From IMG/VR virus record IMGVR_UViG_3300047476_000597, positions 1 through 64,000 of that record: a stretch of DNA of 64,000 nt. One strand, 5' to 3'. The notes under the pieces are model-generated. The model was not told the origin of the DNA. It saw only the letters and a list, made by a program, of their open reading frames with translations, and ran no database searches. This document shows positions 1 to 64,000 of the stretch, one piece after another (position 1 is the first letter of the stretch; each line of letters begins with the position of its first letter). Source of the DNA: a virus. The position numbers were made by a program, and so were the translations under genes.

Positions 1-33
1 TGGGTTGTCCTTTTATATGCATTTTTATATTGT

Positions 34-754
34 TTACTCATCATCTTCTAACCAGCATATATCAGGAGTAGGATCTTCTTCGTCTTCTTCATCTTCGTAG
101 TCAATATCATCTATCGTTGGTATCCCGTTTATCTTTTCTCTGTACTCATTAACTGGTTTATACGTTTTCTGTACAATATCCCCTTCAGTATCAAGAGCTG
201 AGTCCATCCAGGGGCTTGGTGATGATACAGACCCTTCAAAATTGCACAGACGATTTATCTCTGCATCTGATACATAGGCAAAATAGCTAGATGCTATATT
301 AATAGTTTTGCCGCACCCACACTCATATAACATACAACATTCTTTTTACAAAACAAAACACTAATTTAGCTATCTTTTTTGTATACTACTATTGTACGTA
401 GATAGATGATGTGATTTATAGCTATTTGTCTTTTTCTTCTTGTAGAGTGACTATTAGTTTTTTGTAATCTTCTTCTGAGAATACCTCTCCGTGTCCTATC
501 TCTATACTCTCTTCTTCTGTATCTGTTTTTCTTATAAGAGCTATCTCTACACACAGATACCTATCAGGATTACTGTATGACTGAGCAGTTGTAGCATATC
601 CTATAGCCCCATCTGTTATACCAGCTACAGAGTTTGCTGCATCTATCATACTCTCTACCGTAGCCATAGTATCTTCTACAAACTCCTGCAGCTGGTTTTC
701 TGTGAGTTTTATACTATCTCTTCCGTATTCTTCTATTTGTTTTTTATAGTTCAT
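34..754 (-). other. Two hypothetical CDS (34..333 with acidic tail, 422..754)
   Basis: ORF track; same strand and tight spacing as neighbours. Confidence 0.6.
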
Positions 755-1157
755 TGTTTAACAATAGCTTTTTAGCTTGTTCTATTAATACTTTGTGCCT
801 TTCTGTAGGGTTTCCGTTTGTTTTTCGGGTATGACAAACATCACATACTATAGCAATATTCTCTTTTACATACCGGAACTCCGGGTAAGGACTCTTCTCT
901 ATTAGATGTTCGATGTAGTAGTTCTTTAGTTCACCATACAACCTCTTATCACACGACTGACATACATGTTCACGTTCATTCCATACCTCATTATAGAATA
1001 CCCAGTCCTTCTCATGCTGCTCACTCTGTTCCTGCAGCTGTTCGACAGTTTTCGGCTTCCTTTTGAGAGTGCTGTTTCTTTTCAGTGTGCTTGGTGACTT
1101 TTTGAGTACTGTTCTTCGTTTTAGCATATGTTGTGTGTTTACTGATATAATCTGCAT
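744..1157 (-). CDS. Small HNH-family nuclease
   Basis: CxxC..IEHLIEK..YPEFRY..ENIAIVCDVCH pattern. Confidence 0.7.
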   Translation of the reverse strand: MQIISVNTQHMLKRRTVLKKSPSTLKRNSTLKRKPKTVEQLQEQSEQHEKDWVFYNEVWNEREHVCQSCDKRLYGELKNYYIEHLIEKSPYPEFRYVKENIAIVCDVCHTRKTNGNPTERHKVLIEQAKKLLLNNEL

Positions 1158-1218
1158 ATCTCCCTGTCATACCTCTATATAACATCGTTGTTATCCACTG
1201 GTTCATATTGTCATTGTT

Positions 1219-1822
1219 TTATCCTTCAAAACGATCTCCTATTATTATTTTTGCTTGGTGGTATATCATATCTACTATTCTTTGTGCAAACGTGTTATGG
1301 TAACACCAGTGATGATTAAAATCATGAATCTCCATACAGCCATCCCACTTTACAAAACCGCTGAGTAGTTTAATATCTCTTTTATAAGATTCCTCAAAAG
1401 AATATGTAGTACCATTGTCTCCATCATACTCTATATCATATGGATCACCAGGAGCATCTTCCCTGTAGCTTACTATCTCTAGTCCTTGTATATTAACCCA
1501 AAAAGGACTATCTCCATCTTCTTCCCATAAAAACTTTAAGGCAAACTGCATTTCTCCATCATATACTATCTTCTCTTGTTTCATACTGTTGTTTTATTAT
1601 ACTCTCCACTAATAGTTTTATAGCTTGCCGGTCAATAACATTGAATGGTATCTGGTCCTGAGTAACATCTTTTATGTATCTCACAGGGTCTTCTACTATA
1701 CTCTGTATTACTCTAACAGAGTATACTTTAGCTGCTTCCATAGAGAGTAACTCCCACTCTTCTGCAGAGTTGGGAGTTCTTTCTATTACCAGCTGTTCTA
1801 CTGTTTCTTGTATTGTTTTCAT
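1219..1822 (-). other. Two hypothetical CDS (1219..1584, 1559..1822)
   Basis: ORF track, overlapping start/stop junctions. Confidence 0.65.
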
Positions 1823-2826
1823 TCTTGGTTTTCTTTTAGTAGTCCTATTACTCTAGCTTCAATGTCCTCTGCATACTCACTATTGTCCATCATAAACTGT
1901 CTTACAGCTGTGTTACCTTGTAACTTTACTCCTTCTGATATAGTGAACCATGCACCACCTTTCTCTATTAGCTTAAACTCTATAGCTGCATCTATTATCT
2001 CTTGTAACCTATCTATACCGGTTCCCCATTGTATATAGAACGTAGCCTTACCAAAAGGAGGTGAGCATTTATTCTTAGTAACAGTAGCAGTAGTTCTATT
2101 ACCCTCTTTATCTTTATCAACCTCTTTCTGCAGACTTATCTTAATGTCTGGATAAAACTCCCACGCCTTACCACCTGTTGGTTTATCTGAGGCACCGTAA
2201 CCACCTACATTAGTACGCATCTGTGCAATAGCTATTATGGTAGTATTGTGTGTTTTTAAGAGCCTTTTTATCTTACCCAGTGCTACACTACTAGTTCTAC
2301 CAAAAGGAGCTATTGTTGTGTGTCCTACTTCGTTCTCTACTATTATCTTAGGCTGTATAGCTGTATGAGAGTCTATTATAACCATAGCTAGTTTACCAGT
2401 GGGTATGAGCTCCATTAGCTGGTTATACATGTCCTCTGCACATCCTGGTTGGCCTATACGTAGTTTATTGACATTAACACCTAGTTTCTTAGCATATTTT
2501 ACATCTATAGCTGCTTCACCATCCATTAATAGAACCTCTCTATCTGGGTATTTTTTCTGGCAGTTAGCAATAGCATGAAGAGTCAACGTACTCTTACCTG
2601 ACGAGAATGGCCCTGTTAGTTCTATTAGCTTGCCTTCTACATATCCACCAGTACCAAGAGCCTGATCTAGCAGCAAAGAACCAGTAGATATTACATCATG
2701 TTGTTGCTTTTCATCAGCACCAGACATTATTACTCCAGTGCCGTATTTCTTTTCAAGAGAGTCTAGTACCTTTTGAAACGCATCCTTCTCTTCCTTCTCT
2801 TCTATATTTTTTGTCGTCTTTGCCAT
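1819..2826 (-). CDS. recA: RecA-family recombinase
   Basis: ISTGSLLLDQALGTGG, Walker A GPFSSGKST, DGEAAID, QPGCAE, PTGGKAWEFY, TKNKCSPPF. Confidence 0.93.
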   Translation of the reverse strand: MAKTTKNIEEKEEKDAFQKVLDSLEKKYGTGVIMSGADEKQQHDVISTGSLLLDQALGTGGYVEGKLIELTGPFSSGKSTLTLHAIANCQKKYPDREVLLMDGEAAIDVKYAKKLGVNVNKLRIGQPGCAEDMYNQLMELIPTGKLAMVIIDSHTAIQPKIIVENEVGHTTIAPFGRTSSVALGKIKRLLKTHNTTIIAIAQMRTNVGGYGASDKPTGGKAWEFYPDIKISLQKEVDKDKEGNRTTATVTKNKCSPPFGKATFYIQWGTGIDRLQEIIDAAIEFKLIEKGGAWFTISEGVKLQGNTAVRQFMMDNSEYAEDIEARVIGLLKENQE

Positions 2827-3529
2827 GGTTTATGTTTTTTTATTTTTTCTTTGTACAGATCTAGTAAGACGTAAGAACGTTCTTTTGCTTGGTTGTCTTT
2901 ATATCTAGCTACATCTTTGTTGTATATATAGTATACCTCTGTTATTTGAGTAGGAAGAAACCACGGTGGTTCATATTCTGGGTCTTTATCTAACATACCA
3001 TTATACTCTGCTAGAATCATACCAGTTACATATTGTTGTTCCATCTTGTTAGCTAACTCATTGATTCTCCAATCCCACTCTTTGTCGTATTTTATCTGCA
3101 TTTCTGCTTTGAACTCTTTTATCCATTTCTGTCTTACCTCTTGTATTTTTCTTTCTTCTTCTATTTTTTTCTCCTCACGTTTCTGTAGCTGTTTCTTTAT
3201 CCACTGTATCATAGTTCTCTATATCTCATTAAAAACTGGTGTATATCTATATCCCCATCTGGCCAGTGTTGTAAACCTAACATTGTCCACTCATTTATCT
3301 CACTCTCTATGAGTTTCTGTGCTTTGTCTGACCACAGATGAGTCCAGTGATCTTCTACTGCTCCATCATATTCTTCTATTGGTATTGTCATCCCTTCTTG
3401 CTCTCGTAATCTTTCACAATAGCTATCTACTATTTCAGCAGCTGCTTCACTAAACTCATAGTCATCTGCTATTGTTAGACTGAGTTCTTCTATCCATATA
3501 CCTTCTGGTACATTATTATTTTGTTCCAT
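2802..3529 (-). other. Two hypothetical CDS (2802..3212, 3209..3529)
   Basis: ORF track, translationally coupled. Confidence 0.65.
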
Positions 3530-9982: not shown

Positions 9983-12900
9983 TTATGCTGCTACAGGTTC
10001 TTCTTTTGGTTTCTGTAGACTCTGCTTGATCTGTTCTGATAATCTCTTCACTTCATCTTTCAGCTGTTGTAGCTCTTCTTCTCTTTCAAACGGTTTATGT
10101 TCCAATCTGTTGAGGTGACTAATCTCTAGCTCCAGTTTCTCTTGCTCTTTCTGATATGTGTTATACAACAGTCCCTCACATTTATCAATAGCTAATAACA
10201 GATTACGTGCAGCTAGTTTACTATTATCCATTAATACTGAACCATGATTATGATGGTATTTTATAGTACCTTCTGGATGTTGGGCATACACCTTATTATG
10301 ACTCAACATATTAGTACCCTGAGCAGCTGCATACCTATAGTCGTCTGTTATACTACTGCCAGCTTCTACTCTTTCTATCCATACATCAAAACCGTATATC
10401 TCACCTATCTTTTGTCTATATGTCCCTACAGCTGGTCGCCAGTTCCTGAATAGATCTATTAAGACCTCACCCTGTATTTGGCTAACATCTTTCAGTTCTA
10501 CATCTTCTTTTTCCTCGTCTTCTTCTACCTTAGCTACCTTCATCTTCAGACTACGTAACAGTTTTTTTTCTTGTTTTTCTATCTGTATACGTAGTTCGGC
10601 ACCATTTCTCTGATTGATAAGATCTACTGCATCATAGAGTAACAGTTTGTTTATTCTACCACCAGTCTCCGGATCTCTCTCTAGTACACTCTGGTACAGC
10701 TCAACATCTCTCGTCAGTTCTTTCACCAGCTGATCTACTACTACCTTACGGTCTGTTTTAGCTGCTAACATGTGTTTATTGTTGTGTTGCTCTTTGTAAT
10801 GAACGTTGCGAAGGTTCTCCAACAGTGCTACCTTCTTATCAGCCTTAGCTTTTTCCAATAGACTATTATCACCACTCAACACTGCTATATACTCTGCAAA
10901 ATTCATACCCGATGACTCATCTATACTACCCTCATCTATACTACGAGTCTGTAGCTCATTGTTCTTCATCTGTGATATGAATGTCTGCTTGTTCTTTAAC
11001 AGAGTAAACTTGTACGTATCTAGAGAACGTTCTACTGCATACACAAACACATACACCTTGTTATCTTGGGCCTGTTTAGCTAACCAGTTACCTGGTCTAA
11101 CACCTCTACCGTTCCTCTGTGTTAGCTGTGAGGGTTTCCATGGTATATCAAGATGATGCATAGCTACTACTCTTTGTTGAACATTGAGACCGGTACCTGC
11201 TTTATCTGTACTACCTAACAACACTCTAACCTCACCACTGTTAACTTTTTTGAATAGCTCATGTTTTTTCTTATCTGTCTGGTAGTCGTGTATGAACACT
11301 ATCTCTTCTCTTTTCAGCCCAAACTCATCTACGAGTTTATCACGCATAGTATCATACACATTAAACTTCTTAACAGTAACAATCTCTATGCTATTAAAAG
11401 ATTCAACCTCTACCTTATCACTATTAGGAGTACCAACATCACAGAATATTATCTGAGTACCTTTTTGAGCCATGAATCGGTAATAGAACTCGGCAACCTT
11501 AGTAGCACAAACATGTAGCTTACTATCAGGGTGATCATCGTATCTGAACTGGTCTATGAGTCGCATATCGGTACTCATCTTTTTAGCACAGTTGGTAGCT
11601 ATCAACATCTTAGCACTCATCTCTGATTCTGACAGTGGTTCTCTGAATATCCATTCTCCATCACCTGTTTCAGCAAACTTTATTAGCCTGTGTATGTAGT
11701 CTTGTTGTGCTGGAGTAGGAGTTAGTGGTACCAGCTGCTCTACCATCTCTGGTTCATCTATACCGGCCATCTTCTTGGTTTTGTAATCAGCTATCTCATT
11801 GTAGAACAGAGCTAGCTCTGGTACCTTGATAAAATGCCTGAACCTATCTTTTGGTATTATCTGATTAGTAACAGAAAACTCGTAATCAGTAGTCTTCTTA
11901 GCATATACAGCTGCCCATGAGTCAAAATTGGTTATATTCTGTCTAGCTAGTGCTCTTGGTCTCAGATACTTGAACAACAGATACATCTCTGTCAAACTGT
12001 TACTAATAGGAGTACCTGATAAGAATGTAGCTTGTATATCAGCATCTCTTAGTTTTTGCAATTCTCGAATTGCGAACAACATATTCAGAGCTTTCTGGCT
12101 ACCTTCTTGATTACCTAGACCAGCTACTCTGTCGTGCCTCGTGGAATATGTAAGATTTTTATATGCGTGCGCCTCATCAACTAACAAATGGTCTATACCC
12201 ATCTCACGGAATGTAATGTCTTCATCCTTCACCTTACCTATCTTGTCCATAGCTGTTTTCAGCTTAACCGCTAGAGTTTTCTTTCTGTTCTCTAGTCCTT
12301 TAGACATCTTCTTACTAATAGCAAAACCACTGTTTCTAGCTTGGTTAAGATCTTTCTCTAGATCCTCTAGTTCTTCTGACAGTACCTCTTTCTGTATCTC
12401 TAACGACTGCTGTATCTTACCAAACTGGTCATGGGATAATATAATGCAGTCCCAGTCGTTATTCTTGATCTCATGGAATAATCTCTTTCTATTACTCGGT
12501 TCAAAATCCTTCTCATCAGGTGCCAATATTCTAGCACTAGGGTATGCTGTTCTGTATGTACTAGCTACTTCTGCTACATTAGCTTTCAGACAGAGTATAG
12601 CTGGTTTGTTTCTGAGACCTAATCTCTTCATCTCATAGGATGCTATTATGGCTAGTAACGTCTTACCTAGGCCCACCTCATGGTCTATTATACCACCTTG
12701 ATTCTGTATTAGTCGCCATATTGCATTCTTCTGAGTAGCATATAGAGTGATAGGAGTTTTATCTTTACCCAGCTTACTAAGATCTAGGCCAGGGAATGTC
12801 TGATGACTGCCATCGAACTGACGTAACACAAAACAGTTATAGAGACTGTTGTATCTTTCTGCTATCCGGTTCTTGTTAGTATCATCCATATTCCACAACC

Positions 12901-13768
12901 ACTCTTGCCATTTTTTACGCATACTATCTATCTTATCAGCTGCCAGCTGTATAGCATCATTATCTTTTAGAGTACTATCACCACTAGTATACGTATAGAT
13001 AGGAGTAGTATTCTCCATAGCATGTTTCATGAGCTCATGGCCATAGGTAGTTGTCCTACCTAGAGAACGTACTACATACTCAGAATAAGATACAGCGTTA
13101 CCCCAGTGACCAAAACGGAAATCTATCTGATATTCATCTACTGATGGAAAATACTCTAATATAACATCACTAGCATTAAAAAACCACGCCATAAACGCTT
13201 TATAGTATTCCATTGGCACCCATCGCTCACCTAGTTGTATATCTAGTAGTTCAAAAGGTACTGGTTCTGGTTGGTTTTCACGAATAGCAGTTAGTGACCT
13301 AGCTACCTGTTTATCTTCTGGTCTCTCATTGTGTACACGTATAGCTGTCTGTAGTTTCTCATATACGTTACCTGATAACCAGGCATCAGCTGTTACCCAT
13401 TTATTAGTAGAGGGATCTACAAAAACAAGATCTCCCAGCTCCAGTATTACATCTTCTTCTTCCTTTCCTGTTATTTCTGCTATCTGTCCTATACTCACTC
13501 TACCTATCTTACCAAGAACATATACAAGAGCTTCACTACATACTGTTGTAGTGAAGACATCTTCTATGTGTTTAGTACTCTTATATATAACATCAGCTGG
13601 CTCATATTCTGAGTGTATACGTTTTTCTAATGAGCTACATATTAATAATCCATGAGCATCTTTGTTAATTAGATTCCGGTTCCTGCTCTTATTGAGCATA
13701 CCAAAAGAGTTAACAAAATACTCATAAGCCTCTCGTAGTTTTTGTCTTGCTATTTCTGTTTTTGTCAT
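9983..13768 (-). CDS. SNF2-like SF2 helicase, C-terminal part of a DarB-like methylase-helicase (likely start ATG 13768)
   Basis: HEVGLGKT, VDEAH, SGTPISNS, GTGLNVQ, QRNGRGVRPGN; LGERWVP and YLSG-like WLSGNV blocks typical of DarB-like proteins; ATG overlaps upstream TAA. Confidence 0.88.
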   Translation of the reverse strand: MTKTEIARQKLREAYEYFVNSFGMLNKSRNRNLINKDAHGLLICSSLEKRIHSEYEPADVIYKSTKHIEDVFTTTVCSEALVYVLGKIGRVSIGQIAEITGKEEEDVILELGDLVFVDPSTNKWVTADAWLSGNVYEKLQTAIRVHNERPEDKQVARSLTAIRENQPEPVPFELLDIQLGERWVPMEYYKAFMAWFFNASDVILEYFPSVDEYQIDFRFGHWGNAVSYSEYVVRSLGRTTTYGHELMKHAMENTTPIYTYTSGDSTLKDNDAIQLAADKIDSMRKKWQEWLWNMDDTNKNRIAERYNSLYNCFVLRQFDGSHQTFPGLDLSKLGKDKTPITLYATQKNAIWRLIQNQGGIIDHEVGLGKTLLAIIASYEMKRLGLRNKPAILCLKANVAEVASTYRTAYPSARILAPDEKDFEPSNRKRLFHEIKNNDWDCIILSHDQFGKIQQSLEIQKEVLSEELEDLEKDLNQARNSGFAISKKMSKGLENRKKTLAVKLKTAMDKIGKVKDEDITFREMGIDHLLVDEAHAYKNLTYSTRHDRVAGLGNQEGSQKALNMLFAIRELQKLRDADIQATFLSGTPISNSLTEMYLLFKYLRPRALARQNITNFDSWAAVYAKKTTDYEFSVTNQIIPKDRFRHFIKVPELALFYNEIADYKTKKMAGIDEPEMVEQLVPLTPTPAQQDYIHRLIKFAETGDGEWIFREPLSESEMSAKMLIATNCAKKMSTDMRLIDQFRYDDHPDSKLHVCATKVAEFYYRFMAQKGTQIIFCDVGTPNSDKVEVESFNSIEIVTVKKFNVYDTMRDKLVDEFGLKREEIVFIHDYQTDKKKHELFKKVNSGEVRVLLGSTDKAGTGLNVQQRVVAMHHLDIPWKPSQLTQRNGRGVRPGNWLAKQAQDNKVYVFVYAVERSLDTYKFTLLKNKQTFISQMKNNELQTRSIDEGSIDESSGMNFAEYIAVLSGDNSLLEKAKADKKVALLENLRNVHYKEQHNNKHMLAAKTDRKVVVDQLVKELTRDVELYQSVLERDPETGGRINKLLLYDAVDLINQRNGAELRIQIEKQEKKLLRSLKMKVAKVEEDEEKEDVELKDVSQIQGEVLIDLFRNWRPAVGTYRQKIGEIYGFDVWIERVEAGSSITDDYRYAAAQGTNMLSHNKVYAQHPEGTIKYHHNHGSVLMDNSKLAARNLLLAIDKCEGLLYNTYQKEQEKLELEISHLNRLEHKPFEREEELQQLKDEVKRLSEQIKQSLQKPKEEPVAA

Positions 13769-14562
13769 TATTTTGTTTTTATTGGTACGTATACTGTATC
13801 TACTCTTTGTTCCCACTGTTGTTGTATACCTCTTTCATATCCTCTTTGTTCTATGTTTTTTTCTCTAGCACCCCCCATTAACAAAAACAAGGACACAAAA
13901 AGAAGAGTAGGCATAGTACCTATTGAACTTAGTAACAGTGCATTTATTCTTTTTATATGTTCTCTTTTGGTGTCCCACAGTCTACCTAGTGAGATTAGGG
14001 TTATCATATTTCCTATTACACATAATAACCCCATTATTATCATTCTTACATCCATTACTTTGCTTTTTTAATCATTGTTATAGCAGTCATGCTTTTCATA
14101 TTGAGAGTAGAATGTTCGTCCTTTTCACATACAGCTAACCCACCTTCATAAGACTCGTGTACTACTATTTCATCTATTGTTCTTTTGTACTCACAGTTTT
14201 CATACACATACAGCTCATCTCCTACTGAGAATATCTCACCGTCTGATAGCCGTTGAACGCTTAGTATTTTATAGTCTTTATTCATTTTTTTGCTTTTAGT
14301 CTATTAGTCTCCAATAAGATGCACCATGTTCATCACACAGCTGTCTGATCTCTGTAAGAATGTTCTGTATTATTGTGCCTCTATCTGTATCGTGGTCTGG
14401 TTCACATATCCATATACTGTACAGGTCTTCCTCTTGTCTACTAGTATCTGTGTATGTATCTAGACCACGTACACTGTTTGTTAGTCTCCACAGTACATCT
14501 TTGTCTATGCTACTCTTTAGTACTGATACTATCTTTACTATATCTTCATCTATTTGTATCAT
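13768..14562 (-). other. Three small CDS between the helicase and methylase genes (13768..14055 with two TM segments, 14055..14285, 14296..14562)
   Basis: ORF track; hydrophobic segments in the first. Confidence 0.7.
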
Positions 14563-16565
14563 TGTTCTTCTTTTTGTAGTTCATAATAATAATCTCTAAT
14601 ATTTGCATATGCCTCTAGTATCCGCTGTTCTCTACCTTCTTTAATATCTGTTACTAGTTCTGCAACTGTCGGCTTACCTTGATCGTCTGTAGCTGTTATT
14701 ATATACAGCTGTGTCTTTTCTTCAAACAGGTTCTGTTGATTACCAGTTGTTACAGATATTATGGTACCTATCTTATACTCTAGAGCAGGATTATTACACA
14801 ACAGCTGCAGGGATTCTCCTGTCAGGGTACTGGTGGTATTTTCTGTTATAACACTTTGATTGTCAGCTGGTTGTAGGATTTCCTTGTCGCATTTATCTAC
14901 TATATTTGCGACAGTTAAACCAGCTTGACTGAATGTTACCTCGTCTTCTACCCATCTACTACTAGTTATTAGCTTTTCTGGTATTCCCACTAGCTGTTGC
15001 ATTTGTTCTAATAGAGTATCTTCTTTCTCATCTGTATAAACAGAACCTTCTACAGGCATTTTGTATGAATGACCAGTGTCTGACTTGTCAAAACCTGTTT
15101 CTTTTAGTTTCTCACTCCACGAATCTCCTTTTGGATAATAGCTAGGATCACTCATAACATTCTCATCGTAGCAGTTACTGCAAAACAACTCACTACCAAA
15201 CATTCCTACTCCACAGCTAATACATGTGCCTGTAATATCTTCAGATTTTTCAGTACTAACAGCTGTCTCTTCTATCTTAGGGATTGTAGCTACTATGATG
15301 TGGGCTTTTATCCAAGGGTCTACTATGTCTTCAGTTGTATCCCATGGAGCTGGTTCGTCTATTATATCACTCTCACCAGAGGTATCTAACCATTTCTTAC
15401 TCAGACCATAGCGTTGATTAAAATCCCTACGCAATATATCAGCAAACGGCTCCTTTATCTCATCTATAGGACCATCCCACCATGTTTCTACAGCTGGTTT
15501 ACCATATTGATTTTTGCCTGGTTTTACTGATGTAGCTACTGTTATATTCTTATCTGGGTTATCTGTCTTGTGTATGCTATTTATATAGCTATTTATTGCT
15601 ACTTTTATTCCTTGTATATCTTGTACACTACTCTCACACAACAGCTGCTCTTCTTCTGACATATCTGCCTCTGTCTTATCGAATCTTCTACGTACTACAA
15701 GAAAATGGCTAGGTGCCTCAGTATTAGCAGACTCTTTCATCAGATTATCCGGCATCACTGTAAGAGAGATAAAATCGCAGTTACTGAATAAATACTTTCT
15801 AGCTGTTCTATTAGTAGGAGTATCTAGAAATGCATTAGTTACCAGATATGCTAACAGACCACCATGGTTGAGTTTACTAATACCTTTGGCAAAAAAATAG
15901 TTATGTACCTTGCCTGTGAGATTCTTGTCTGCTATTGTTGGATCAAACACTGGGAATGAACCATATGGTGGATTAGTAGCTACAAGATCATACTGACCAT
16001 CTTCACTCTTATCAGATTCTTCAAAACCTTTATTGTGCACTGTATAACGACTCTTAGCTGGTAGTGTACTCATGACACATTCTAACACCTTGCTAGTCAG
16101 CATATCCTTCTCATACATAGTAACCTTCTGTAGATTCTCTATATTCTGAATAGCTGACAGAGCAAAAACACCACCACCAGCTGCAGGGTCGTATACTGTT
16201 TTTATATCAGCATATTCTTGTACTATCTCCATGAATGTATCAACCACTACAGCTGGTGTGTAATATGCATCTAGTACTGCTGCTTTTATTGATGCTACTA
16301 CTTCTTTGTACGCTTTTTCACTCAGTTTATCCTGTAACAGATCATGCAGCTGTTGTATTACTGGTCGTAGTTGTTTATCTCCTTCTGCTACTGTTATCCA
16401 CTCTTGATCGTTGTATGGATTGTACAACAGTGCTTTTACAAACCCCCAACCTTTAAAAGATAACATAGTTTCTACTTCCTCTTCAGAAAGAGTCAAACCT
16501 TCGTGCCATTTAAAAACTGCTCTTATTGCTTCTATATTATTTTGTAGTGCTTGTTTCTGATTCAT
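14559..16565 (-). CDS. Amino-DNA methyltransferase (N6A/N4C), N-terminal part of a DarB-like protein
   Basis: AYYTP, motif I YDPAAGGGVF, motif IV TNPPYG, HNYFFAKG..GGLLAY; acidic linker with CxxC..CxxC. Confidence 0.88.
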   Translation of the reverse strand: MNQKQALQNNIEAIRAVFKWHEGLTLSEEEVETMLSFKGWGFVKALLYNPYNDQEWITVAEGDKQLRPVIQQLHDLLQDKLSEKAYKEVVASIKAAVLDAYYTPAVVVDTFMEIVQEYADIKTVYDPAAGGGVFALSAIQNIENLQKVTMYEKDMLTSKVLECVMSTLPAKSRYTVHNKGFEESDKSEDGQYDLVATNPPYGSFPVFDPTIADKNLTGKVHNYFFAKGISKLNHGGLLAYLVTNAFLDTPTNRTARKYLFSNCDFISLTVMPDNLMKESANTEAPSHFLVVRRRFDKTEADMSEEEQLLCESSVQDIQGIKVAINSYINSIHKTDNPDKNITVATSVKPGKNQYGKPAVETWWDGPIDEIKEPFADILRRDFNQRYGLSKKWLDTSGESDIIDEPAPWDTTEDIVDPWIKAHIIVATIPKIEETAVSTEKSEDITGTCISCGVGMFGSELFCSNCYDENVMSDPSYYPKGDSWSEKLKETGFDKSDTGHSYKMPVEGSVYTDEKEDTLLEQMQQLVGIPEKLITSSRWVEDEVTFSQAGLTVANIVDKCDKEILQPADNQSVITENTTSTLTGESLQLLCNNPALEYKIGTIISVTTGNQQNLFEEKTQLYIITATDDQGKPTVAELVTDIKEGREQRILEAYANIRDYYYELQKEEQ

Positions 16566-17280
16566 TTTTTTTATTTTTACGTAGTTCTCTTCTTCTTTTA
16601 TTTTTACAATTTTTACAATAACTTTCCAATCCGTTTCTTTTTTTGTTTCTCTTATTTTCTAAAAAAGACTCTGGTAAAAGATATTCTTTACATATACTGC
16701 ATTTATATTTTCCATTGTTCTTTTCTTTTTTCTGTATTATTTTATTATAGATTACTTGATCTTCTTTTGTTAATATATTATGACATGCAAACTCACCATG
16801 ACATTTAGTAGCTAGTTCGTTATACCACATAGCTGCCTCTACTTCTGTGTTAAAATTTCTAGTATAACTTTTATGTTTACCTATACATTTCGTTATCCAT
16901 GTCCACTTTTTCTTTAGTAGTCGGTATTGTACCCCTGTATATTTAGAAGATGTAAGTATCCCCTTTCTTGTTTTTATTTTTAGTTTATTTCCAGCATTTT
17001 GTCTTACAGTAGCTTCTCTTAGATTTGATCTTTGATTATTTAAACCATTATGATCTATATGATCTATATGAATAAAAGAATCAGCAGGTTTCATAATTGC
17101 TCTATGCATTGATATTTTAGGTCCTCTTCCTTTTTCGAGTCTTCCCATTACATACAATGTATTACTATTAGCACATTTGCAAACATGCCAGTTTAATTTG
17201 TTTAACCAGTCATAGTCTTCATCTGATACTTGAGCATAAAGACCGTTTCCGTTTTTTCCATTTAATTTTATCAACTTCAT
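16537..17280 (-). CDS. Free-standing HNH homing endonuclease with AP2-like and Zn-finger domains
   Basis: AQVSDEDY, MHRAIM..IDHIDHNGLNNQRSNLR, SSKYTGV..FNTEVEAAMWYN, CSIC..YCKNC. Confidence 0.88.
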   Translation of the reverse strand: MKLIKLNGKNGNGLYAQVSDEDYDWLNKLNWHVCKCANSNTLYVMGRLEKGRGPKISMHRAIMKPADSFIHIDHIDHNGLNNQRSNLREATVRQNAGNKLKIKTRKGILTSSKYTGVQYRLLKKKWTWITKCIGKHKSYTRNFNTEVEAAMWYNELATKCHGEFACHNILTKEDQVIYNKIIQKKEKNNGKYKCSICKEYLLPESFLENKRNKKRNGLESYCKNCKNKRRRELRKNKKNESETSTTK

Positions 17281-17282
17281 AA

Positions 17283-17387
17283 AAATAGTTTTGCCGGTTT
17301 AGGTACAGCTATCTAGTCCATAGCAATACCCTTACCGGCAGTTTCTTTGTACCTAGGACTAGTAGGTATTTTATCCCTACAAAGGTA
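17283..17387 (-). promoter_or_regulatory. Promoter (-7 TACCTTTG) plus two-hairpin kissing-loop leader of the HNH gene
   Basis: -7 box 17380-17387; loop CUAGUCC is complementary to loop GGACUAG of the second hairpin closed by GCCGGU/ACCGGC. Confidence 0.65.
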
Positions 17388-17394
17388 CTATTCT

Positions 17395-17733
17395 TTATTT
17401 ATTTTTCAACATTTCCAATGACATTATTTTAGCTATTTTACCCCACATTCTGTAATTTCTGAATGTTGTTTTTATCCAGTACACACCATCTTCTTTCATC
17501 AGGTCTCTACTGTCCCATATCCAGTTATTTACATGGTCAAATAGCCATGGACTATCATCGAGATTCTCCCATTCCATTTCTATTATCTTTCTATCTGATC
17601 CCCCATACCCACTCTTTGCTACTAGTATTTGGCCTTTGTAGGTTACATTCTTTTTGGGTGCCAGATGTCCCCATGTATCTTGATATACTGCTTCCTGATA
17701 CTCTTTTATTGGTTCCAGATGATTTAGTCCCAT
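17395..17733 (-). CDS. Hypothetical protein (likely start ATG 17733)
   Basis: ORF track 17395..17754; internal ATG preferred. Confidence 0.65.
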   Translation of the reverse strand: MGLNHLEPIKEYQEAVYQDTWGHLAPKKNVTYKGQILVAKSGYGGSDRKIIEMEWENLDDSPWLFDHVNNWIWDSRDLMKEDGVYWIKTTFRNYRMWGKIAKIMSLEMLKNK

Positions 17734-17873
17734 ATCTTTATTGTTTTTATCCAACCTGTCCAGCCTAACAGATACTCAACTTGTTCTTCTTTTAGTACTA
17801 TTCCTTCATGCCACTGAAACACTGCTTCTAGTGCTTTGATGTTATCCTCTATTACCTGTTTCTGTGTTCTCAT
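17724..17873 (-). CDS. 49-aa mini-protein paralogous to the N-terminus of the DarB-like methylase (not in ORF track)
   Basis: Translated by hand: MRTQKQVIEDNIKALEAVFQWHEGIVLKEEQVEYLLGWTGWIKTIKIWD; 21 of 38 aligned residues identical to the 14559..16565 N-terminus. Confidence 0.75.
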   Translation of the reverse strand: MRTQKQVIEDNIKALEAVFQWHEGIVLKEEQVEYLLGWTGWIKTIKIWD

Positions 17874-18756
17874 ACTATTTCTGTTTTTAGTAACGTTATT
17901 CCGTTTTCGTATATATGAACACTATCTTCTATCCATGTTTCTGCTTCATCTGTTACATAGTGAACAGCTTCATTAACAGCGTTTTCACCTTTTGCACCAC
18001 CAGATACCCCATAGTCTAGTTCATCAGTATCTATTTCTACTGTTATTCTTACTGTTATATCTATCTCTCTAGTTGTCTTCATTAATCTTTTATTTTATAT
18101 TTACCAGGAAACTTACTATTTATCAGATACTGTAATTGACTAATAGAGAATACTTTATAGCCTAGCCAACCATTTTCTAGTATTTCTTGTAGTCGTTTAC
18201 AGTTTCCTTGTTCTAGCAGCTCATTTTTAATAACAGCTATATCGTCTAATGCAAGAATCTTCATTGCTGTTTCCTTACGTATTTGTTTCATCTTTGTATC
18301 GTTTTTTATTTAAACATTCTATAGCAGCTTTCTCAAACACAGTAAGGTTTATTGTTGGTGCTTGATATACCTCTTGTTGTTGAACAGTTAGTTCACTCAG
18401 ATCTACATCAGCTCCATTTCTTATTCGTGTGATTAGCTTTCTTTTTCTTTTGTTGTATTCTGGTATTGCTTGATCTATTGTCAACATTACACAGTTACCT
18501 AGTTTTTCGCATGTTTTTATATTAATACACTGGTTACAGCCACTCAATACTACCCACTGTTCTTGTTTACTCATTTCTTAAACTGTTCTTTGTGCTTTAT
18601 TATAGTGTCTATAACATCTTCTTCATACCATGCTGTACTATGAGCTATTGGTTGCCATTTTTTGAACCAACCTGATATACCAGCTGGTCTGTATACTGCC
18701 CAATATACTGTCTTGTCCTTTGACATTGCTTGTTTTCTTATTTTATATGTATACAT
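17870..18756 (-). other. Four small hypothetical CDS (17870..18082, 18082..18291, 18275..18574, 18571..18756)
   Basis: ORF track, coupled junctions. Confidence 0.65.
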
Positions 18757-22395: not shown

Positions 22396-23127
22396 CTATA
22401 GATCAACCAGTTGTACTTTTTCTGTCTTCTTAGCTCTGTAGTTGTATATCTCTTGTATGAGTGCTAGATACTGTACTACATTAGCACATTTCACCAGCTT
22501 GCGTGATTGGTATGTCATCTTCTCATTAAAGAATATATCGAATATGAACGATGGATTTTTGATAGCCCTCATCATAGCATAACAGAAACTACGGTCTTTA
22601 TAGAACGGCACATACTGACTCATCTTTACTATCTTACTGGCTATATCTTCTGCTTCTAGGATATTATCAGCAACGAACTGACCTCTAGAGAACTTGTCCT
22701 GTTGTTCTTTTATATTACCACTACCAGTGAGTAGGAATAGATTGGTTGTGGTACCTAGTCCGTACTTCTCTTTGAACTGCTTATATACTACATATTCCCT
22801 ATTACCAGTTGCTATGTAGCTGGTTATATAGTCTTTGTGGTCCCACGGTCTGTTATGAGTATTCAGTGCTTGTACATCTTCGATTTTAGCTCCTTTTACT
22901 ACGTAGTAATATATAGGCTTACCCATCTTAGAAAGAGCTGTAAAACGATGCTGACCATCTATTATCTCCATTTTCTCATTAACCTGTATAGGAGACACAG
23001 CCATGTACTCAGACATTGTTTTTATCAACCTGTTTACATGCAGCTGGTCTACTACTCTATTGCCACCTATTATTGAGAACTTCTTATAGTCGGTTGTTTT
23101 CTCTATTGTCATTCCTGTTGTACTCAT
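22396..23127 (-). CDS. ParB/Srx-like N-terminal domain protein
   Basis: GNRVV..HVNRL..SPIQVN..IIDGQHRFTA. Confidence 0.8.
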   Translation of the reverse strand: MSTTGMTIEKTTDYKKFSIIGGNRVVDQLHVNRLIKTMSEYMAVSPIQVNEKMEIIDGQHRFTALSKMGKPIYYYVVKGAKIEDVQALNTHNRPWDHKDYITSYIATGNREYVVYKQFKEKYGLGTTTNLFLLTGSGNIKEQQDKFSRGQFVADNILEAEDIASKIVKMSQYVPFYKDRSFCYAMMRAIKNPSFIFDIFFNEKMTYQSRKLVKCANVVQYLALIQEIYNYRAKKTEKVQLVDL

Positions 23128-23141
23128 TGTTTAGTTTTTTA

Positions 23142-23699
23142 TTAGTTATCAAACCACATTACTACTCTTACATCTGCTGGTTCTCCCAGTGTTTTTAATA
23201 TTTCTATCTCATTAAAGAACCACTCACCTAAAAACTCCCTGATAGTAGTCTGTTTCCCTTTTCCTTCTTCTGCTATAGCTGCTCCATTAAAAACATTAGG
23301 GCTTTCCTCTTTTGTATACCTACGGTCTTCAAAAACACGATCATAGTCATACTCTATTAGTTCTTTTAGAGTCACATTGTTAAAAGAGTGATAGTTACCA
23401 TCATTGAATAGTTCTTGTTTTACTGATTCTTCATAGTCTCCCATACCAGAAAAGTAGCTGGTTACTTTATTTAGATACTCACTGTCTTCTGGTAGTCCCC
23501 TAGTTTCTCCTGTTATACACTCTATATGACTGTAGTTTCTTACATCAGCAAGAAAACCAAAAATGCCATACGACCTTATACTAAAAGGCTTCGATGTATT
23601 ATTCCATGTAGCTGTACCTGGATCGAATATTTCTTCTGTTACTCGTTCCCACCTATTGTTTATTTTTCTCTCTGCAAAAGCATGTATATCAGCTCCCAT
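23142..23699 (-). CDS. Conserved hypothetical phage protein (MGxDIH...VxWFDN family)
   Basis: MGADIH, RSYGIFGFLADVRN, RGLPED, YHS..TLKEL, VRVVMWFDN. Confidence 0.75.
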   Translation of the reverse strand: MGADIHAFAERKINNRWERVTEEIFDPGTATWNNTSKPFSIRSYGIFGFLADVRNYSHIECITGETRGLPEDSEYLNKVTSYFSGMGDYEESVKQELFNDGNYHSFNNVTLKELIEYDYDRVFEDRRYTKEESPNVFNGAAIAEEGKGKQTTIREFLGEWFFNEIEILKTLGEPADVRVVMWFDN

Positions 23700-23735
23700 T
23701 GTTTTAGTTTTTAGATTGTAGTTTGTCGAATGTTT

Positions 23736-24458: not shown

Positions 24459-24460
24459 AA

Positions 24461-24556
24461 AATAAGAATCCTTTAAAGGTTCACAGCGGCAACTGATCCC
24501 CTTTAAAGGATTGATAATGTTTTTAATAGTTGTTGCCGCAACTTAATGCGAATATA
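24461..24556 (-). promoter_or_regulatory. Promoter (-7 variant TATATTCG) plus kissing-loop leader of the GIY-YIG gene
   Basis: GCGGCAAC in hairpin 1 is complementary to GUUGCCGC in the loop of a 13-bp stem (24467-24479/24500-24512). Confidence 0.65.
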
Positions 24557-24575
24557 CAACTACATTATAACATTT

Positions 24576-35529: not shown

Positions 35530-35539
35530 GTTTTTATAT

Positions 35540-52600: not shown

Positions 52601-55600
52601 ATACCCAACGTAAAAGATTCTGACAGAGCTGTATGTATTTCTTGTATTTCTGTTCTAGTGAGTACCATGTTTTTGTTTGTTTTTGATTATTAAACGAATA
52701 TACTAAAAACCTGCTGCAATCATGTCAGTAAGAAGATGCATAACCCTGTCTTTTGGTGTTTCTTCTGTGTAGATAGCTATATCCTTAGCATCATTTACTG
52801 ATGCTAATAGATCAAAAGATTCTTTTATATTATGTTGTTTTTCAAAAAACATCTTTATTGCTGCTGATAAACTACTATTGTAACCCCATCCTCTAATACT
52901 TATATCTATAGGATAATCATTAGGATTAAGAGCATTTAGTCTATTAAGATGGCCTATTGCACAATAAGAGTTTTTTCCATTACTATACATATTAGTACAC
53001 CACTGTTCAGCTGGTATAGGATATAATAACCTGTATGCTTTTTGTGCTATTGTTTCATTCTCTGGTATTTGTGTTTCTGTGTTCATGTTGTTTGTTTTTT
53101 ATGATTGTTGTTTACTATACTCTTTACATGTAGTAGTGTTGTAGTACATTGTACGCTCATATTTTAGCTAGATTACAACAACTACTACAGCAAAGAGCAA
53201 TGTTATTCATTCTTAGGCCATACATTCTTTTCATACCAGCTGCAGAATGCTACTGGATCTTTCATCATATCAGCTAGTGTTTGATCTTTAGCTGGGGATA
53301 CCCTATACACCATTGGTTTTTGTGGGAACTTTATATACGTACCCTGAGTAACATCTGTATATGTCATTGTGAGACCTAACAATGTACCAACCTCTAAACA
53401 TACTAGACAGCCATTGTCCTCACTGACTACTGGTACATACCTGTCTGCTGGTTGATACTTAGATCTGAATAGACCTATTGTTCTTGATTGTGCTTCTTCT
53501 AGCACTTCTTGTAATGATTTGCTTTCTGTTGTCATTGTTGTGTTTTTGATTGTTAACTACTGAATGATACTAGATACCCTTGTCTTTGATAGTTTGCTAC
53601 TATACTAGCTATAGAATCTGATGAACAGCTGCCACCTGCTACATAATGTCCTTGATTGTGTATACTGAATATGTTATCATCTTGTATGTAGTTTATGTGG
53701 GTGAACTTTTGATTGTTGGTTGCCTTCAGCTGTTATAGGAGTGGTAGGTATTTCTACCCATGTTTCAGATATTTCCATTTTGACCAGCTGAATACCTCTA
53801 CGTTCTAGTATACCAGCTATCAGATCATCTTGTTCTTGTTCTGTGAGTGTGATAGCACTAGTAGTATTGAACAGATCATCAGATATAATCATCATTATTT
53901 TGTTATTGTCTTCTACTGCTAATAGGTCTATTATACTACCTTTTTCTTGCAGCTGTTGTGAATAATAATGATTAGTCATTGTTTTCGTTTTTGAATGTTT
54001 TTAGAATATTTACTCTAGTTTGTAAAGCTGTTATGATGTCTGGAATAGTTTCACACATTGCAGGAACATTTGTAATATAATCAGAGTTTATTATTACAAA
54101 CTTTGACTTCTCAAGAAGCCATTGACAACCATATACTGCTTCATCAAAAACAATATTAGCACAATAACATACCCCACGTTCTACAGAGTATTCTTTACAT
54201 ATTGCTTTTGCACCTTCAAGAGTATAAAAGAGTTGAACATCTTTTATGCATTTCTCATAGTGTTTTATCAGCTGTTTAGCCAGCTGTTCTGTCATTAGTA
54301 TTGCCATGATTGTTGTTTTTATGTTGTTAATAATTAGATATATCTCCAGTGAGTTGGTGTATAATACACATACATACTACCGTCAGCTAACCACCATAGG
54401 TTGCCTTTACGTTTTAGGTATTGTACATTTCTTTCGCCAGATGCATCGACTATTCTTGTTTCTACTATTAGATTATCTGGTGGCAACATGTTATTTACTG
54501 ATGTCCAGTTCATTGTGCTGTGTTTTATATTGTGATTAATAGCATTGTTGATAAAACTCTACGACAGCTGCAATAGGATGTATAACAGCTTCATCTATAT
54601 TATGTGGTTTTGTCACAGTTTTGTGTACAGCTGCTATAAAAACAGTTCCTACAAATGCAGCTGTTATATATTCTTCTACAGTTTCTACTTCATTATCAGG
54701 ATCAATGTCTTTAGTACCTTTGATAATAGCATACAAAAAATATTCTTTTGTTGTGTAATAACGATTGTTTATTGTTTTTATGACTAGCATTGTGTTTGTG
54801 TTTTTTATGATTAATATTATTACACCAGCTACATAGTAATAATGATATAGTTGTATCTATCATTATTACCAACTAGCTGTGTTAGTTGCCGATGTCACTC
54901 ATAAACTGAGTATCTATATCTTGGTTATCTGAACTATGCATTGCTTTTAGTTTTAACAATGCAGCATCTGCTATTAATGCTATTCTATGTTCTGTAGATA
55001 GATACTTACAGGTATCTATGTATTGTTCTACGAACTCAATATCTCTGTCTAGGTTTTGCATATCTGTGTATGCTGTACCTCTTGCTTTATATTCTGTCAT
55101 TTTATTTTGTTTTAGTTTGTTATAAAAATACCTATAGATGAGTATGGGGTATGGTCCATTGGGCTTCGACTCTCGTATGAGTCCCTGCTGAACGTATCCA
55201 ACATAGGGCTTAGGCCGTAACGGCACCTGTGACCATCTCATACCCACCTACAGGCATTGATTGTTATTCAACTGGTTCAACCAACCTAATGTTCAATGGA
55301 TTACAGTATATTATCTGACCATCATCACATATAACTGCTATAGGCATAGTTATCTCAACATTACTCCATATTCTTCTTATACCAGTAGTCTGCATACTAT
55401 CTGTCTTTACTATACGGCCTTGTCTATGAGTATAATCATTAAGAGATGTACCAGCTGGATACATAGCAGTCCATTCATCATCTCTGAGTCCTATAGTATT
55501 AATATGACAATCACGTAGACCACTGTTATCTACGAATACCACTCTACCACCTATAGATGCTTCTATAGTATGACATTCTCTAGAGGTTTCTTTGTTGTTA

Positions 55601-60179: not shown

Positions 60180-60183
60180 TTAC

Positions 60184-60245: not shown

Positions 60246-60344
60246 TGTTAATTTCTTAATATACTATTACCAACCTTTTTATTATTATTCTCTGTACATT
60301 TGCAACATCACATCTTTATTATAGTTTCATACTAAACACATAAC

Positions 60345-61580: not shown

Positions 61581-61585
61581 TACAG

Positions 61586-62212: not shown

Positions 62213-62289
62213 GTACAACAAAGGTAGAAAAATATTTTTGGTTTATAACAAACAACATTATACATTTGCTTTATTATAAAACTAAAACA

Positions 62290-62899
62290 ATGGCAACAAT
62301 AGATTTTAAAAAAACATTTGCTGAAAAAGCAGCTAGTGGAGAGGAGTTAACACCTGAAGAACTAGCGGAATTAAGAAAACGTCTAGATGAAGAAACTAGT
62401 CGTATGAGAGAAAAACTAGATGAGCTTACTGTACGTAAACAATATTTTGAAATAGCTGCTCTTATGGGTATTATTAAGGTAGAAGAGGTGCCAGGGTTAT
62501 TAGGACTAGAGATGCAAAAAAGAAAGATAGAAGCTATATGGGTACTCACACAGTTTGAACAAGGACAAGCTGCTGCTAGAAAAGAACTAGAAGAGCAGCA
62601 GAGCAGAAAAGAATCTCCTATAATCACAGACGGACAAACAAAATAGTATGGCACAGCTAACCAAAAAGATTCAAGAGATACAAAAAGATGAAGTGTTTAC
62701 AATACCAGAACAAGAAGGAGAGTATTGTAGAAAAGGTATGGTATATAGTAAAACCTATAGCTACTATGTAGCAGCTGACATAGCAGCACTAGTACTACCT
62801 AAGTTCTTGAACGAAGATACTATTGTAATACCAACAGGGCAGTACTTTAATACAGATCCCTCTTTTCCTGAAACAAAAGAAACTGAATACAAACAATAA
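62290..62899 (+). other. Two hypothetical CDS (62290..62646, 62648..62899); promoter TACATTTG at 62261-62268
   Basis: ORF track, start trimmed to ATG. Confidence 0.65.
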
Positions 62900-63261
62900 T
62901 GGCACAGGTCAATGTATGGAACCAAATAGTGAGGATGGAACTGGATGAGATAATCCGGTTCCAACTCTCTATGCACTGTACATTCAATAGTGTACACATA
63001 ACAGAAGGGGAGCTAGACGTATTGCTAGACATAACAAAAGCCGGTGATAGAGAGCTCAACATACTGTGCAAAGAGATGATAAAAACAGGTAGGTTTGCAT
63101 CACAGCAGTCTATCAGGAATACCATAGACTCTCTAGTAGCTAAGAAGCTGATAGTAAAAGCTAGGAATAACGGCAGTAGAAAAAGGGTATCACTAGCTAA
63201 GAACGTTGTTATTAATACTCAGGCACCTATACTAGTAGATATTAAGGTACTATGCAACTAA
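62899..63261 (+). CDS. Putative winged-helix DNA-binding protein
   Basis: ITEGELDVL..FASQQSIRNTIDSLVAKKLIVK. Confidence 0.55.
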   Translation: MAQVNVWNQIVRMELDEIIRFQLSMHCTFNSVHITEGELDVLLDITKAGDRELNILCKEMIKTGRFASQQSIRNTIDSLVAKKLIVKARNNGSRKRVSLAKNVVINTQAPILVDIKVLCN

Positions 63262-63650
63262 AAGAGCTTGTTAAACAATATGCTGCAGATAACAACATAC
63301 CAGAAGAAGATGCTCTGAGTATTGTGATAGGGATGTACAACAGTATCAAGATCTCTATGAACCGGTTAGAACACATCAGAATCAAGGTGCCAGGATTAGG
63401 AGTATTCTCTATGAAACACTGGAAGGCGCAGAAGGAGCTAGAGTCACTGATAAAAAGACGCAATAAGGTAGGGCCGGAACACAAACACTGGTACAATAAA
63501 GGGATAGAACTCATGAAACGTGCATCTGTTCTATCTACTAAAGAGGCTGAAAAAAAACAAGCATTCAAACTAAAGAAAAAACAATACAAAGATGAGCAAC
63601 TGGATACAGAAGCTGCAAACGGCCTGGAGATTGAGAAAAGAAATAGCTGA
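63252..63650 (+). CDS. HU/IHF-like DNA-binding protein
   Basis: LKELVKQYA..IPEEDA..IV..IKVPGLGVFSMK. Confidence 0.6.
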   Translation: MQLKELVKQYAADNNIPEEDALSIVIGMYNSIKISMNRLEHIRIKVPGLGVFSMKHWKAQKELESLIKRRNKVGPEHKHWYNKGIELMKRASVLSTKEAEKKQAFKLKKKQYKDEQLDTEAANGLEIEKRNS

Positions 63651-63951
63651 GGGCTTTCTTAATGTATACACATCGCATAGTGAAGATATACAAAAGACTA
63701 TAGACGAGAGGGTAGCTATATGTGAGAGTAATCAATGTGGTTATTACGATGCAGCTGGTACTGGAGATAACGTATTCCTAAAAGGACAGCCGGCATGTGG
63801 GTTATGTGGCTGTAATGTACCAGCTAAACCATCGTGCTTGTCCTGCACATGCACACTCAGAGACATAGGTAAGCTGCCTCTGTGGGAAGCAGTACTAACA
63901 CCAGAACAAGAAAAAGAACTAGATAACGCACAAAAAAATACTAATGGTTAG
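63592..63951 (+). CDS. Cys-rich (putative Zn-binding) protein
   Basis: RVAICESNQC..CGLCGC..K..CLSCTC..W. Confidence 0.7.
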   Translation: MSNWIQKLQTAWRLRKEIAEGFLNVYTSHSEDIQKTIDERVAICESNQCGYYDAAGTGDNVFLKGQPACGLCGCNVPAKPSCLSCTCTLRDIGKLPLWEAVLTPEQEKELDNAQKNTNG

Positions 63952-64000
63952 GTTCATAGAAGAAGGTCATAGCTATCTAGACAAAGACAACAACAAACTC
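63944..64000 (+). CDS. Partial CDS running off the window (MVRFIEEGHSYLD..), possibly a PD-(D/E)XK nuclease
   Basis: ATG overlapping the previous stop; F.EE.H.Y start pattern. Confidence 0.4.
   Translation, partial: MVRFIEEGHSYLDKDNNKL

Follow-up and report, generated by a model that had tools for sequence, protein, structure and literature searches.

Highly iterated palindromes have been described from cyanobacteria, as HIP1 (GCGATCGC) and alternate words of the same kind (Elhai 2015, PMC4390886; Xu, Lawrence and Durand 2018, PMC5861425). As far as these accounts describe them, such words are short palindromes that are hyper-abundant over the whole genome independently of reading frame, in genes as well as spacers; their sites are conserved between related genomes beyond controls, and their outer one-base variants are raised. 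Here we report such an abundance, independence of frame and site conservation for the hexamer CAGCTG in a phage, from a stretch of 64,000 nucleotides (the window) that forms the first 64 kb of IMG/VR virus record IMGVR_UViG_3300047476_000597, and from the whole record, labelled G000 in our comparisons (133,627 bp; CheckV completeness 100%; GC 36.6%). The case is unlike HIP1 in that it concerns a phage and not a cell, and in that the word is a 6-mer of mixed composition, present at 2.4 per kb. Its excess is about 10-fold over dinucleotides, compared with 15- to 300-fold given for HIP1; the 10-90 kb periodicity given for HIP1 is beyond the scope of a 134-kb genome, in which CAGCTG is Poisson-distributed at short range.

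Two further systems invite comparison. Restriction-site avoidance in phages, as treated by Rusinov et al. (2018, PMC6286503), involves the same class of words, the 6-bp Type II palindromes, 10 of 44 of which are purged here; CAGCTG, however, is enriched and conserved, so that the sign is reversed. Clade-A pandoraviruses have lost AGCT (bioRxiv 10.1101/712018), a case that, as far as the preprint's account goes, resembles ours in that scattered point changes have altered how often an AGCT-containing word occurs, throughout the genome and in a single lineage, with the cause unexplained. It differs in that the change is a loss and not a gain, in a giant eukaryotic virus, in which DNA from the clade retaining the word is cut by PvuII and AluI. 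In the literature searched we found no published report of a hyper-abundant palindrome in a phage, and the iterated-palindrome papers there concern cyanobacteria by title. We regard CAGCTG as a phenomenon of the HIP kind, new in its occurrence in a phage, in its word and in its recurrence in unrelated phages. The reading we favour, tentatively and at somewhat below an even chance, is that this phage lineage maintains CAGCTG by selection as a highly iterated palindrome, read on double-stranded DNA (dsDNA) by a protein of restriction-modification type.

The hand counts of an earlier note on this DNA, for two dense stretches and for single sites at 56249, 58332 and 58353, were all confirmed. The note had placed these single sites between genes, which is correct for 56249; 58332 and 58353 lie inside a 97-aa open reading frame (ORF) of our crude gene set.

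1-64000, no strand: CAGCTG array, 147 copies, the window's share of 324 in the genome, evenly spread.
14338-16352, no strand: dense stretch, 10 CAGCTG, inside the methylase gene.
53230-54290, no strand: dense stretch, 7 CAGCTG.

We observed a mean of 13.59 ± 3.81 CAGCTG in 100 dinucleotide shuffles of the window, with a maximum of 22, and none of the 100 reached 147. Over the whole genome, the 324 copies amount to 2.42 per kb, or about one every 400 bases, and every 4-kb bin holds 3 to 17 of them. Markov models of orders 0 to 4 predicted 6.3, 13.6, 33.5, 79.2 and 125.9 copies for the window (147 observed) and 15.0, 30.5, 70.6, 157.0 and 262.7 for the genome (324 observed). The genomic observed/expected ratio (O/E) was 10.6 at order 1 and 4.6 at order 2; in the window, CAGCTG ranked top among the 4096 hexamers under order 1. 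Since the expectation climbs with order throughout, the excess is built up over all sub-words, and this stepwise absorption is an effect of the favoured hexamer on its own sub-words; CAGC and GCTG were near expectation outside the hexamer. Other words that had looked frequent by eye fared unequally: AGCT (561, vs 323 at order 1 and 494 at order 2) and ACCGGT (27, vs 14.3 by synonymous shuffle) were indeed raised, and CTAG and GTAC were near Markov expectation.

The influence of coding was assessed on a set of 157 crude genes, covering 92% of the genome, by a control that permutes synonymous codons and keeps each protein and each gene's codon usage (300 shuffles). The coding sequences (CDS) contained 301 CAGCTG, compared with 95.1 ± 8.6 in the shuffles and 126 in the highest of the 300, and CAGCTG was the top hexamer by synonymous-shuffle z-score (z = 23). 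All three reading frames were affected (92, 183 and 26 observed; 17.8, 74.7 and 2.7 expected), as was non-coding DNA (2.12 per kb, vs 2.45 per kb in CDS), which bears out the claim of the earlier note that a codon-pair effect is not responsible. Shuffling codon order gave an expectation of 51.5 CAGCTG in CDS, from which it follows that the proteins themselves are also shifted toward CAGCTG. As to individual codons, 92 of 215 Gln-Leu pairs were written CAG-CTG, where 15 were expected; AGC encoded Ser before Cys or Trp 26 times out of 38 where the codon in front ended in C and 16 times out of 52 where it did not, AGC making up 10% of all Ser codons; and Ala in the context CA_G was encoded by GCT in 183 of 227 cases, and in about half elsewhere. 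Synonymous codon choice at CAGCTG depends on neighbouring codons. These observations support an excess at the DNA level that is independent of frame and comparable to that of HIP1, being about 10-fold over composition genome-wide and present between genes.

That the excess is a by-product of base composition, codon or amino-acid usage, or lower-order words is hardly credible to us. Such an origin could appeal to the order-4 expectation of 262.7 vs 324, and to two other phage records, G411 and G413, where codon and amino-acid usage explain the counts fully. High-order Markov models, however, absorb the signal of the word itself; the synonymous shuffle predicts 95 copies vs 301, all frames and non-coding DNA take part, and the sites are conserved above controls, as described below. 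The artefact was tested and rejected by synonymous shuffle, hexamer ranking and site conservation, and after codon control O/E was not near 1 but 3.19 (z = 26 in a comparison of palindromes).

The bases flanking CAGCTG carry at most 0.2 bit, so that the hexamer is the unit and an extended motif is ruled out. A Chi-like reading of GCTGGT/ACCAGC was also discarded, these words reflecting overlap with CAGCTG and Ala-Gly codon pairs. The synonymous shuffle of the whole genome brought out other word biases, which we record in their own right. AATT is strongly depleted on both strands (131 vs 652), as are AAAT/ATTT (656 vs 1154; 274 vs 604) and AAGT/ACTT (258 vs 610; 90 vs 406), an avoidance of AANT type with no obvious enzyme behind it. 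TGTTA(C) is raised on the coding strand only (TGTTA 337 vs 146; complement TAACA 382 vs 331), and its signal is strand-specific, unlike that of CAGCTG.

Conservation of the sites was examined between G000 and a close relative over 33,273 aligned columns at 80.9% identity, that is, in one genome pair. CAGCTG was kept in the relative at 56 of 79 G000 sites (71%), compared with 33.7 expected from windows matched for codon phase (p = 5e-7). Among control hexamers, conservation was 34% in 483 windows of the same composition, 36% for all hexamers with four G/C, and 44% (328 of 742) for in-phase hexamers 6-18 bases to either side (Fisher p = 8e-6). CAGCTG was the most conserved of the 108 hexamers having at least 30 windows. 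Since the kept fraction exceeds every control rate, the comparison supports the conclusion that CAGCTG sites are selected, and the part of the earlier note that proposed selection by a sequence-specific system stands to that extent; its named candidate genes were not supported, as described below. Site conservation beyond controls, as used for HIP1 by Xu et al. (2018), is found here for this one pair. There is also turnover: 23 CAGCTG of G000 have no counterpart in the relative, and 37 of the relative have none in G000.

An alternative account of these sites, which we consider unlikely, is that biased mismatch correction, of the very-short-patch kind or of the methyl-directed kind that Elhai proposed for HIP1, turns near-cognate words into CAGCTG, driven by a cytosine methylase and nuclease pair of the host, the sites themselves being functionless. 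Very-short-patch repair, the Dcm/Vsr system of E. coli, might increase a methylated palindrome at the expense of its T-variant. The excess described here is far larger than that known for CCWGG under Dcm/Vsr. By synonymous shuffle, CAGTTG/CAACTG, the product of inner-C deamination, was indeed the most depleted transition neighbour of CAGCTG (47 vs 96.0, z = -5.6), and TAGCTG/CAGCTA was raised (259 vs 176.5, 1.47-fold), an outer-position bias of the kind described for HIP1 (PMC4390886); inner variants ranged from 0.49 to 1.41. Poisson spacing, equal coding and non-coding density, and the lack of CAGCTG in recently acquired genes likewise count in its favour. But the T-variant signal is not robust. 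The depletion of CAGTTG disappears under an order-4 Markov model (O/E 1.02), where it follows a general shortage of AACT-type words, and it is absent in G409 and G412, two unrelated CAGCTG-rich phages in which the pattern of one-base variants is not the same. Nor does the phage have the enzymes of the Dcm/Vsr system: we found no match to Vsr (PF03852), C5 methylase (PF00145) or N4/N6-beta methylase (PF01555) profiles anywhere in the genome, in searches where PF00145 and PF03852 matched in 10 and 4 of 14 control genomes, respectively. The Vsr-like nuclease that the earlier note had named as a candidate is not supported. Among the 28 one-base differences between G000 and its relative at CAGCTG sites, 12 fell at outer, 5 at second or fifth and 11 at central positions, and conservation covers the whole hexamer and not one position. 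No CAGCTG-rich host was seen among 401 Bacteroidota genomes. Because the whole site is conserved and inner changes are as frequent as outer ones, selection is favoured over repair bias; for HIP1, too, such conservation has been argued to indicate selection and not repair (Xu et al., PMC5861425).

The distribution of the excess among relatives was followed with the polymerase, which identified 34 loci in IMG/VR and JGI metagenomes. Only one of these, L001 (71% identity), was enriched (29 CAGCTG vs 2.4 expected), the remaining loci (22-62% identity) having 0 to 7 CAGCTG, near expectation; at 60-62% identity, two short contigs held 0 and 1. G003, the full record of L001, has 45 CAGCTG in 18,712 bp, and G418, whose portal is 79% identical, has 101 in 35,669 bp; these two fragments of the close relative jointly cover 19.3-76.3 kb of G000 and have the same density as G000. 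More distant relatives are as follows.

G420, complete with terminal repeats, 125 kb, portal 47% identical: 25 CAGCTG.
G419, 95 kb, distant relative: 27 CAGCTG.
G001, complete, 103 kb, polymerase 38% identical: 1 CAGCTG.

On these comparisons, the excess is confined to a young sub-lineage. A separate observation concerns G420 (the record of locus L280), in which positions 31,000-104,000 hold no CAGCTG in 73 kb, where 10.9 are expected, and the 25 copies lie in the other 52 kb, an arm-specific purge of the word.

The treatment of other palindromes in G000 is opposite to that of CAGCTG. Of the 44 palindromes of 6 bp that could be assessed by the codon control, 10 were present at one third or less of expectation, among them the following.

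CAATTG: 0 observed, 33 expected.
GAATTC: 1 observed, 32 expected.
GATATC: 1 observed, 29 expected.
AAGCTT: 4 observed, 42 expected.
TTCGAA: 0 observed, 14 expected.

The second-highest palindrome after CAGCTG was GGTACC, at 2.0-fold. The phage shows classical restriction avoidance, with the opposite for one word, CAGCTG. Since CAGCTG is itself a 6-bp palindrome of restriction type and other such palindromes are purged, the likeliest reader would be a protein of restriction-modification type.

The same word recurs in phages outside this lineage. When IMG/VR was scanned for groups of three closely placed CAGCTG, it gave at least 119 loci, at least 21 of which had at least 10 CAGCTG at 5-fold or more; among the matches listed, one of 21 rich loci (L145) was similar to G000 by tblastx. 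L145, with its record G414, was dropped as a further case, its excess being a local cluster only. Five whole records were then put to the codon control.

G409, 36.6 kb, 97% complete: 66 CAGCTG, 22.2 expected (z 11.8).
G412, 31 kb, 65% complete: 88 CAGCTG, 19.9 expected (z 17.2).
G410, 13.9 kb, 97% complete: 25 CAGCTG, 9.8 expected (z 5.3).
G411, 18.5 kb, 33% complete: 26 CAGCTG, 30.8 expected (z -1.1).
G413, 24.9 kb, 55% complete: 29 CAGCTG, 22.2 expected (z 1.8).

G409, G412 and, more weakly, G410 retained an excess in this control; G411 and G413, fully explained by codon and amino-acid usage, were set aside as cases. No protein was shared between G000 and any of the five (BLASTP, 1e-4), and no Pfam methylase family was found among the scanned ORFs of G409, G410 and G412. 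G409 and G412 also purge many palindromes, CTGCAG being reduced to 0 in both (17 and 10.5 expected, respectively), and G409 has a second raised palindrome, AGATCT (50 vs 15.8). Hence at least two unrelated phages without a Pfam methylase show the same combination of CAGCTG excess and palindrome purging. G409 is a temperate podovirus with an integrase, related to the HTVC010P-type pelagiphages (portal 58% identical); of its cultured relatives, HTVC010P has 0 CAGCTG with 6 expected, and HTVC035P has 9 with 6 expected. We also noticed that CTGCAG, ACTAGT, CATATG, TCTAGA and GTTAAC are fully removed from G409 (L248 and L249), and that the 31 kb of G412 (L250 and L251) contain no CACCTG/CAGGTG, though its one-base neighbour CAGCTG is hyper-abundant there.

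The possibility that the phage merely mirrors its host was weighed against a survey of 401 Bacteroidota genomes, drawn evenly from the phylum and forming a small part of it. By this account, the host would itself be CAGCTG-rich, through a self-mark or an iterated palindrome of its own, and the phage would have adapted or ameliorated to it. It gains something from the 250-fold range of CAGCTG density in the survey (0.004 to 1.03 per kb), and from the temperate habit of G409 with its integrase. None of the 401 genomes, however, nears the 2.42 per kb of the phage, so that the same enrichment in a host, the sign of uptake or self-recognition words of a host (DUS/USS, Chi), was not seen in this sample. 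In 13 regions of the densest genomes, O/E lay between 1 and 6 under order 1 and between about 1 and 1.8 under order 2, as opposed to 10.6 and 4.6 in the phage, and clusters of three CAGCTG are rare (12 or fewer per genome). Moreover, A after CAGCTG is disfavoured in the phage (12% vs 32% background), so that TCAGCTGA is not the phage form. We consider host mimicry decidedly unlikely. As an observation apart, CAGCTG occurs under 50 times over 2-3 Mb in about twenty of the Bacteroidota genomes (10, 13, 15 and 16 times in four of them), and CAGCTG-specific restriction seems to be common in the phylum that probably holds the host.

Candidate readers within the phage included two adjoining genes, which the earlier note had named among its candidates.

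9983-13816, minus strand: SNF2-family helicase with SNF2/Helicase_C domains, adjoining the methylase.
14559-16565, minus strand: DarB-like, gamma-class N6_Mtase/Eco57I-like methylase carrying an NPPY motif; no other DNA methylase was found in the genome.

The two proteins correspond, in split form, to methylase-helicase fusions that occur in Bacteroidota. The nearest solved relative of the methylase is M.BseCI, a weak match (E = 0.001) in whose alignment the NPPY is seen. Homologues occur on many contigs of 114-138 kb and, fused to a helicase, in Bacteroidota, mostly Chitinophagaceae; scans of IMG/VR with the SNF2 and methylase proteins found no close relative. The family is conserved to about residue 390, the rest being variable and of low complexity. 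The two genes (9983-16565) have the features of a DarB-like system, namely an N6-adenine domain with NPPY next to a superfamily-2 helicase. DarB of phage P1 is packaged in the virion and protects DNA in cis.

It is quite improbable, in our estimate, that this methylase with its SNF2 partner recognises CAGCTG, the sites being selected for methylation or loading. One mark of the HIP1 type, after Elhai (2015), is that the genome encodes a methyltransferase with specificity for the word; here there is one N6-adenine methylase, a candidate only. It is the sole methylase of the genome, CAGCTG has a methylatable adenine, and two complete distant relatives without the excess (G420 and G001) are also without the gene. 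Yet the syntenic locus L035 has both the methylase (46% identity) and the SNF2 gene (53% over 1254 aa) and contains 0 CAGCTG in 18,995 bp, with 1.8 expected, so that the family is present there without the excess. CAGCTG is under-represented in 80 Bacteroidota loci around homologues (median O/E 0.29), the conserved part of the protein ends at about residue 390 before its variable, low-complexity remainder, and the homologues in phage records are annotated as DarB-like antirestriction proteins. G409, 97% complete, has the excess without a Pfam methylase. Taken together, the comparisons speak against the NPPY methylase as the reader, and the methylase/SNF2 proposal is not supported. The other candidates of the earlier note, an altered uracil-DNA glycosylase (UDG), a ParB-like (GmrSD_N) and an HU-like protein, are weak matches that nothing ties to CAGCTG.

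Genes that look recently acquired provide a contrast within G000. The window contains two homing endonuclease genes, of HNH (16537-17280) and GIY-YIG (23736-24458) type, neither of which has any CAGCTG, as the earlier note had observed.

16353-18680, no strand: second largest CAGCTG-free gap of the genome, 2334 bp, covering the HNH homing endonuclease gene, GC 28%.
23047-25439, no strand: largest CAGCTG-free gap of the genome, 2399 bp, covering the GIY-YIG homing endonuclease gene, GC 28%.
17751-17867, minus strand: remnant, upstream of the HNH gene, of another methylase N-terminus, with 54% identity to residues 2-40.

The two genes are the strongest compositional outliers and have the genome's highest density of otherwise avoided words. 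They are recent arrivals that carry neither the CAGCTG excess nor the avoidance signature. No single gene was significantly CAGCTG-poor by a Poisson test. The remnant at 17751-17867, which is upstream of the intact methylase gene as well, has about 43 codons that are similar to the N-terminus of methylase alleles on related contigs and end in a stop; it looks as if homing had once replaced or duplicated the 5' part of the methylase gene and left this trace. In L001, a 272-aa ORF (2289-3107) lies between the end of the polymerase ORF and a stretch matching the end of the G000 polymerase, and may be another mobile insertion.

Under the reading that CAGCTG is selected and has a dsDNA reader, point substitutions would create CAGCTG through context-dependent synonymous codon choice and amino-acid changes, and purifying selection would keep existing sites; the density stands at about 2.4 per kb throughout the genome except in recently acquired genes. 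The putative reader would be a sequence-specific protein of restriction-modification type that binds or methylates dsDNA; the benefit would add up with the number of sites, and CAGCTG would act as a sequence mark of the phage's own DNA. Of this, the excess, its coding-independence, its confinement to one lineage and the conservation of sites are shown by the data above; a protein reader and an additive benefit are inferred.

Several observations weigh against this reading. No CAGCTG-specific enzyme family was found among the screened ORFs of the window and those of the unrelated CAGCTG-rich phages. Spacing is Poisson (coefficient of variation 1.00; Kolmogorov-Smirnov p = 0.52; variance-to-mean ratio 1.02 in 1-kb bins). 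Lost sites had no nearby replacement beyond expectation (4 vs 2.8 within 60 bp, p = 0.30), and in a smaller first alignment, of 7,853 columns, no excess conservation was seen (7 sites in common, 10 and 11 unshared, baseline 35%), although the 33-kb test supersedes it. Conservation could partly reflect continual restoration of sites by biased repair, and an RNA-level reader is conceivable, in that the palindrome occurs in transcripts of either strand. A search for the PvuII-endonuclease family, run without a positive control, gave no match, and lineage-specific ORFs gave no usable match in PHROGs scans, nor did the 555-aa and 200-aa proteins in the ESM Atlas. The uniform Poisson spacing is also evidence against processes such as priming or strand discrimination, which would need another site nearby. 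The check for spacing periodicity that had been proposed turned up only the 3-base coding period, and a spacing rule or helical phasing was dismissed. A wider proposal, which we put forward as a speculation with rather little probability, is that some phages mark their own genome by sequence and not by base modification, by means of a private palindrome of restriction type, placed every few hundred bases, and a dedicated dsDNA reader that distinguishes phage DNA from that of the host or of competitors and serves protection, loading or packaging; the word would differ by lineage, and CAGCTG would have been adopted independently by G409 and G412.

As to the phage itself, crAss-like phages are among the top matches of its family-A polymerase in the phage collection, at a distance (<32% identity), in agreement with a crAss-like affiliation, and PHROGs head families are matched by the genes for terminase, portal and capsid. 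The minus strand of the window carries genes of replication and nucleotide metabolism: RecA, a PD-(D/E)XK nuclease, RuvC, the SNF2 helicase and N6-adenine methylase, the HNH and GIY-YIG homing endonucleases, dCTP deaminase, ThyX, a DnaG-type primase, a DnaB-like helicase, NAMPT and PolA. At 34027-36795, NAMPT is accompanied by a PRPP-synthetase-like gene, and a Tad3-family (Thoeris inhibitor) ORF is found among the small ORFs of the window, which suggests counter-defence against NAD-depleting systems; the close relative G003 is without the NAMPT module.

It is known of phages that they escape restriction through the loss of short palindromes. In this phage about ten have been purged, and one has been built up to 324 copies and conserved, which shows a selective force on phage DNA that is absent from the literature searched. 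It could reveal a new mechanism of self-marking or anti-defence, and, with its 134 kb and about 170 genes, it is a far smaller system in which to take up the question posed by HIP1.

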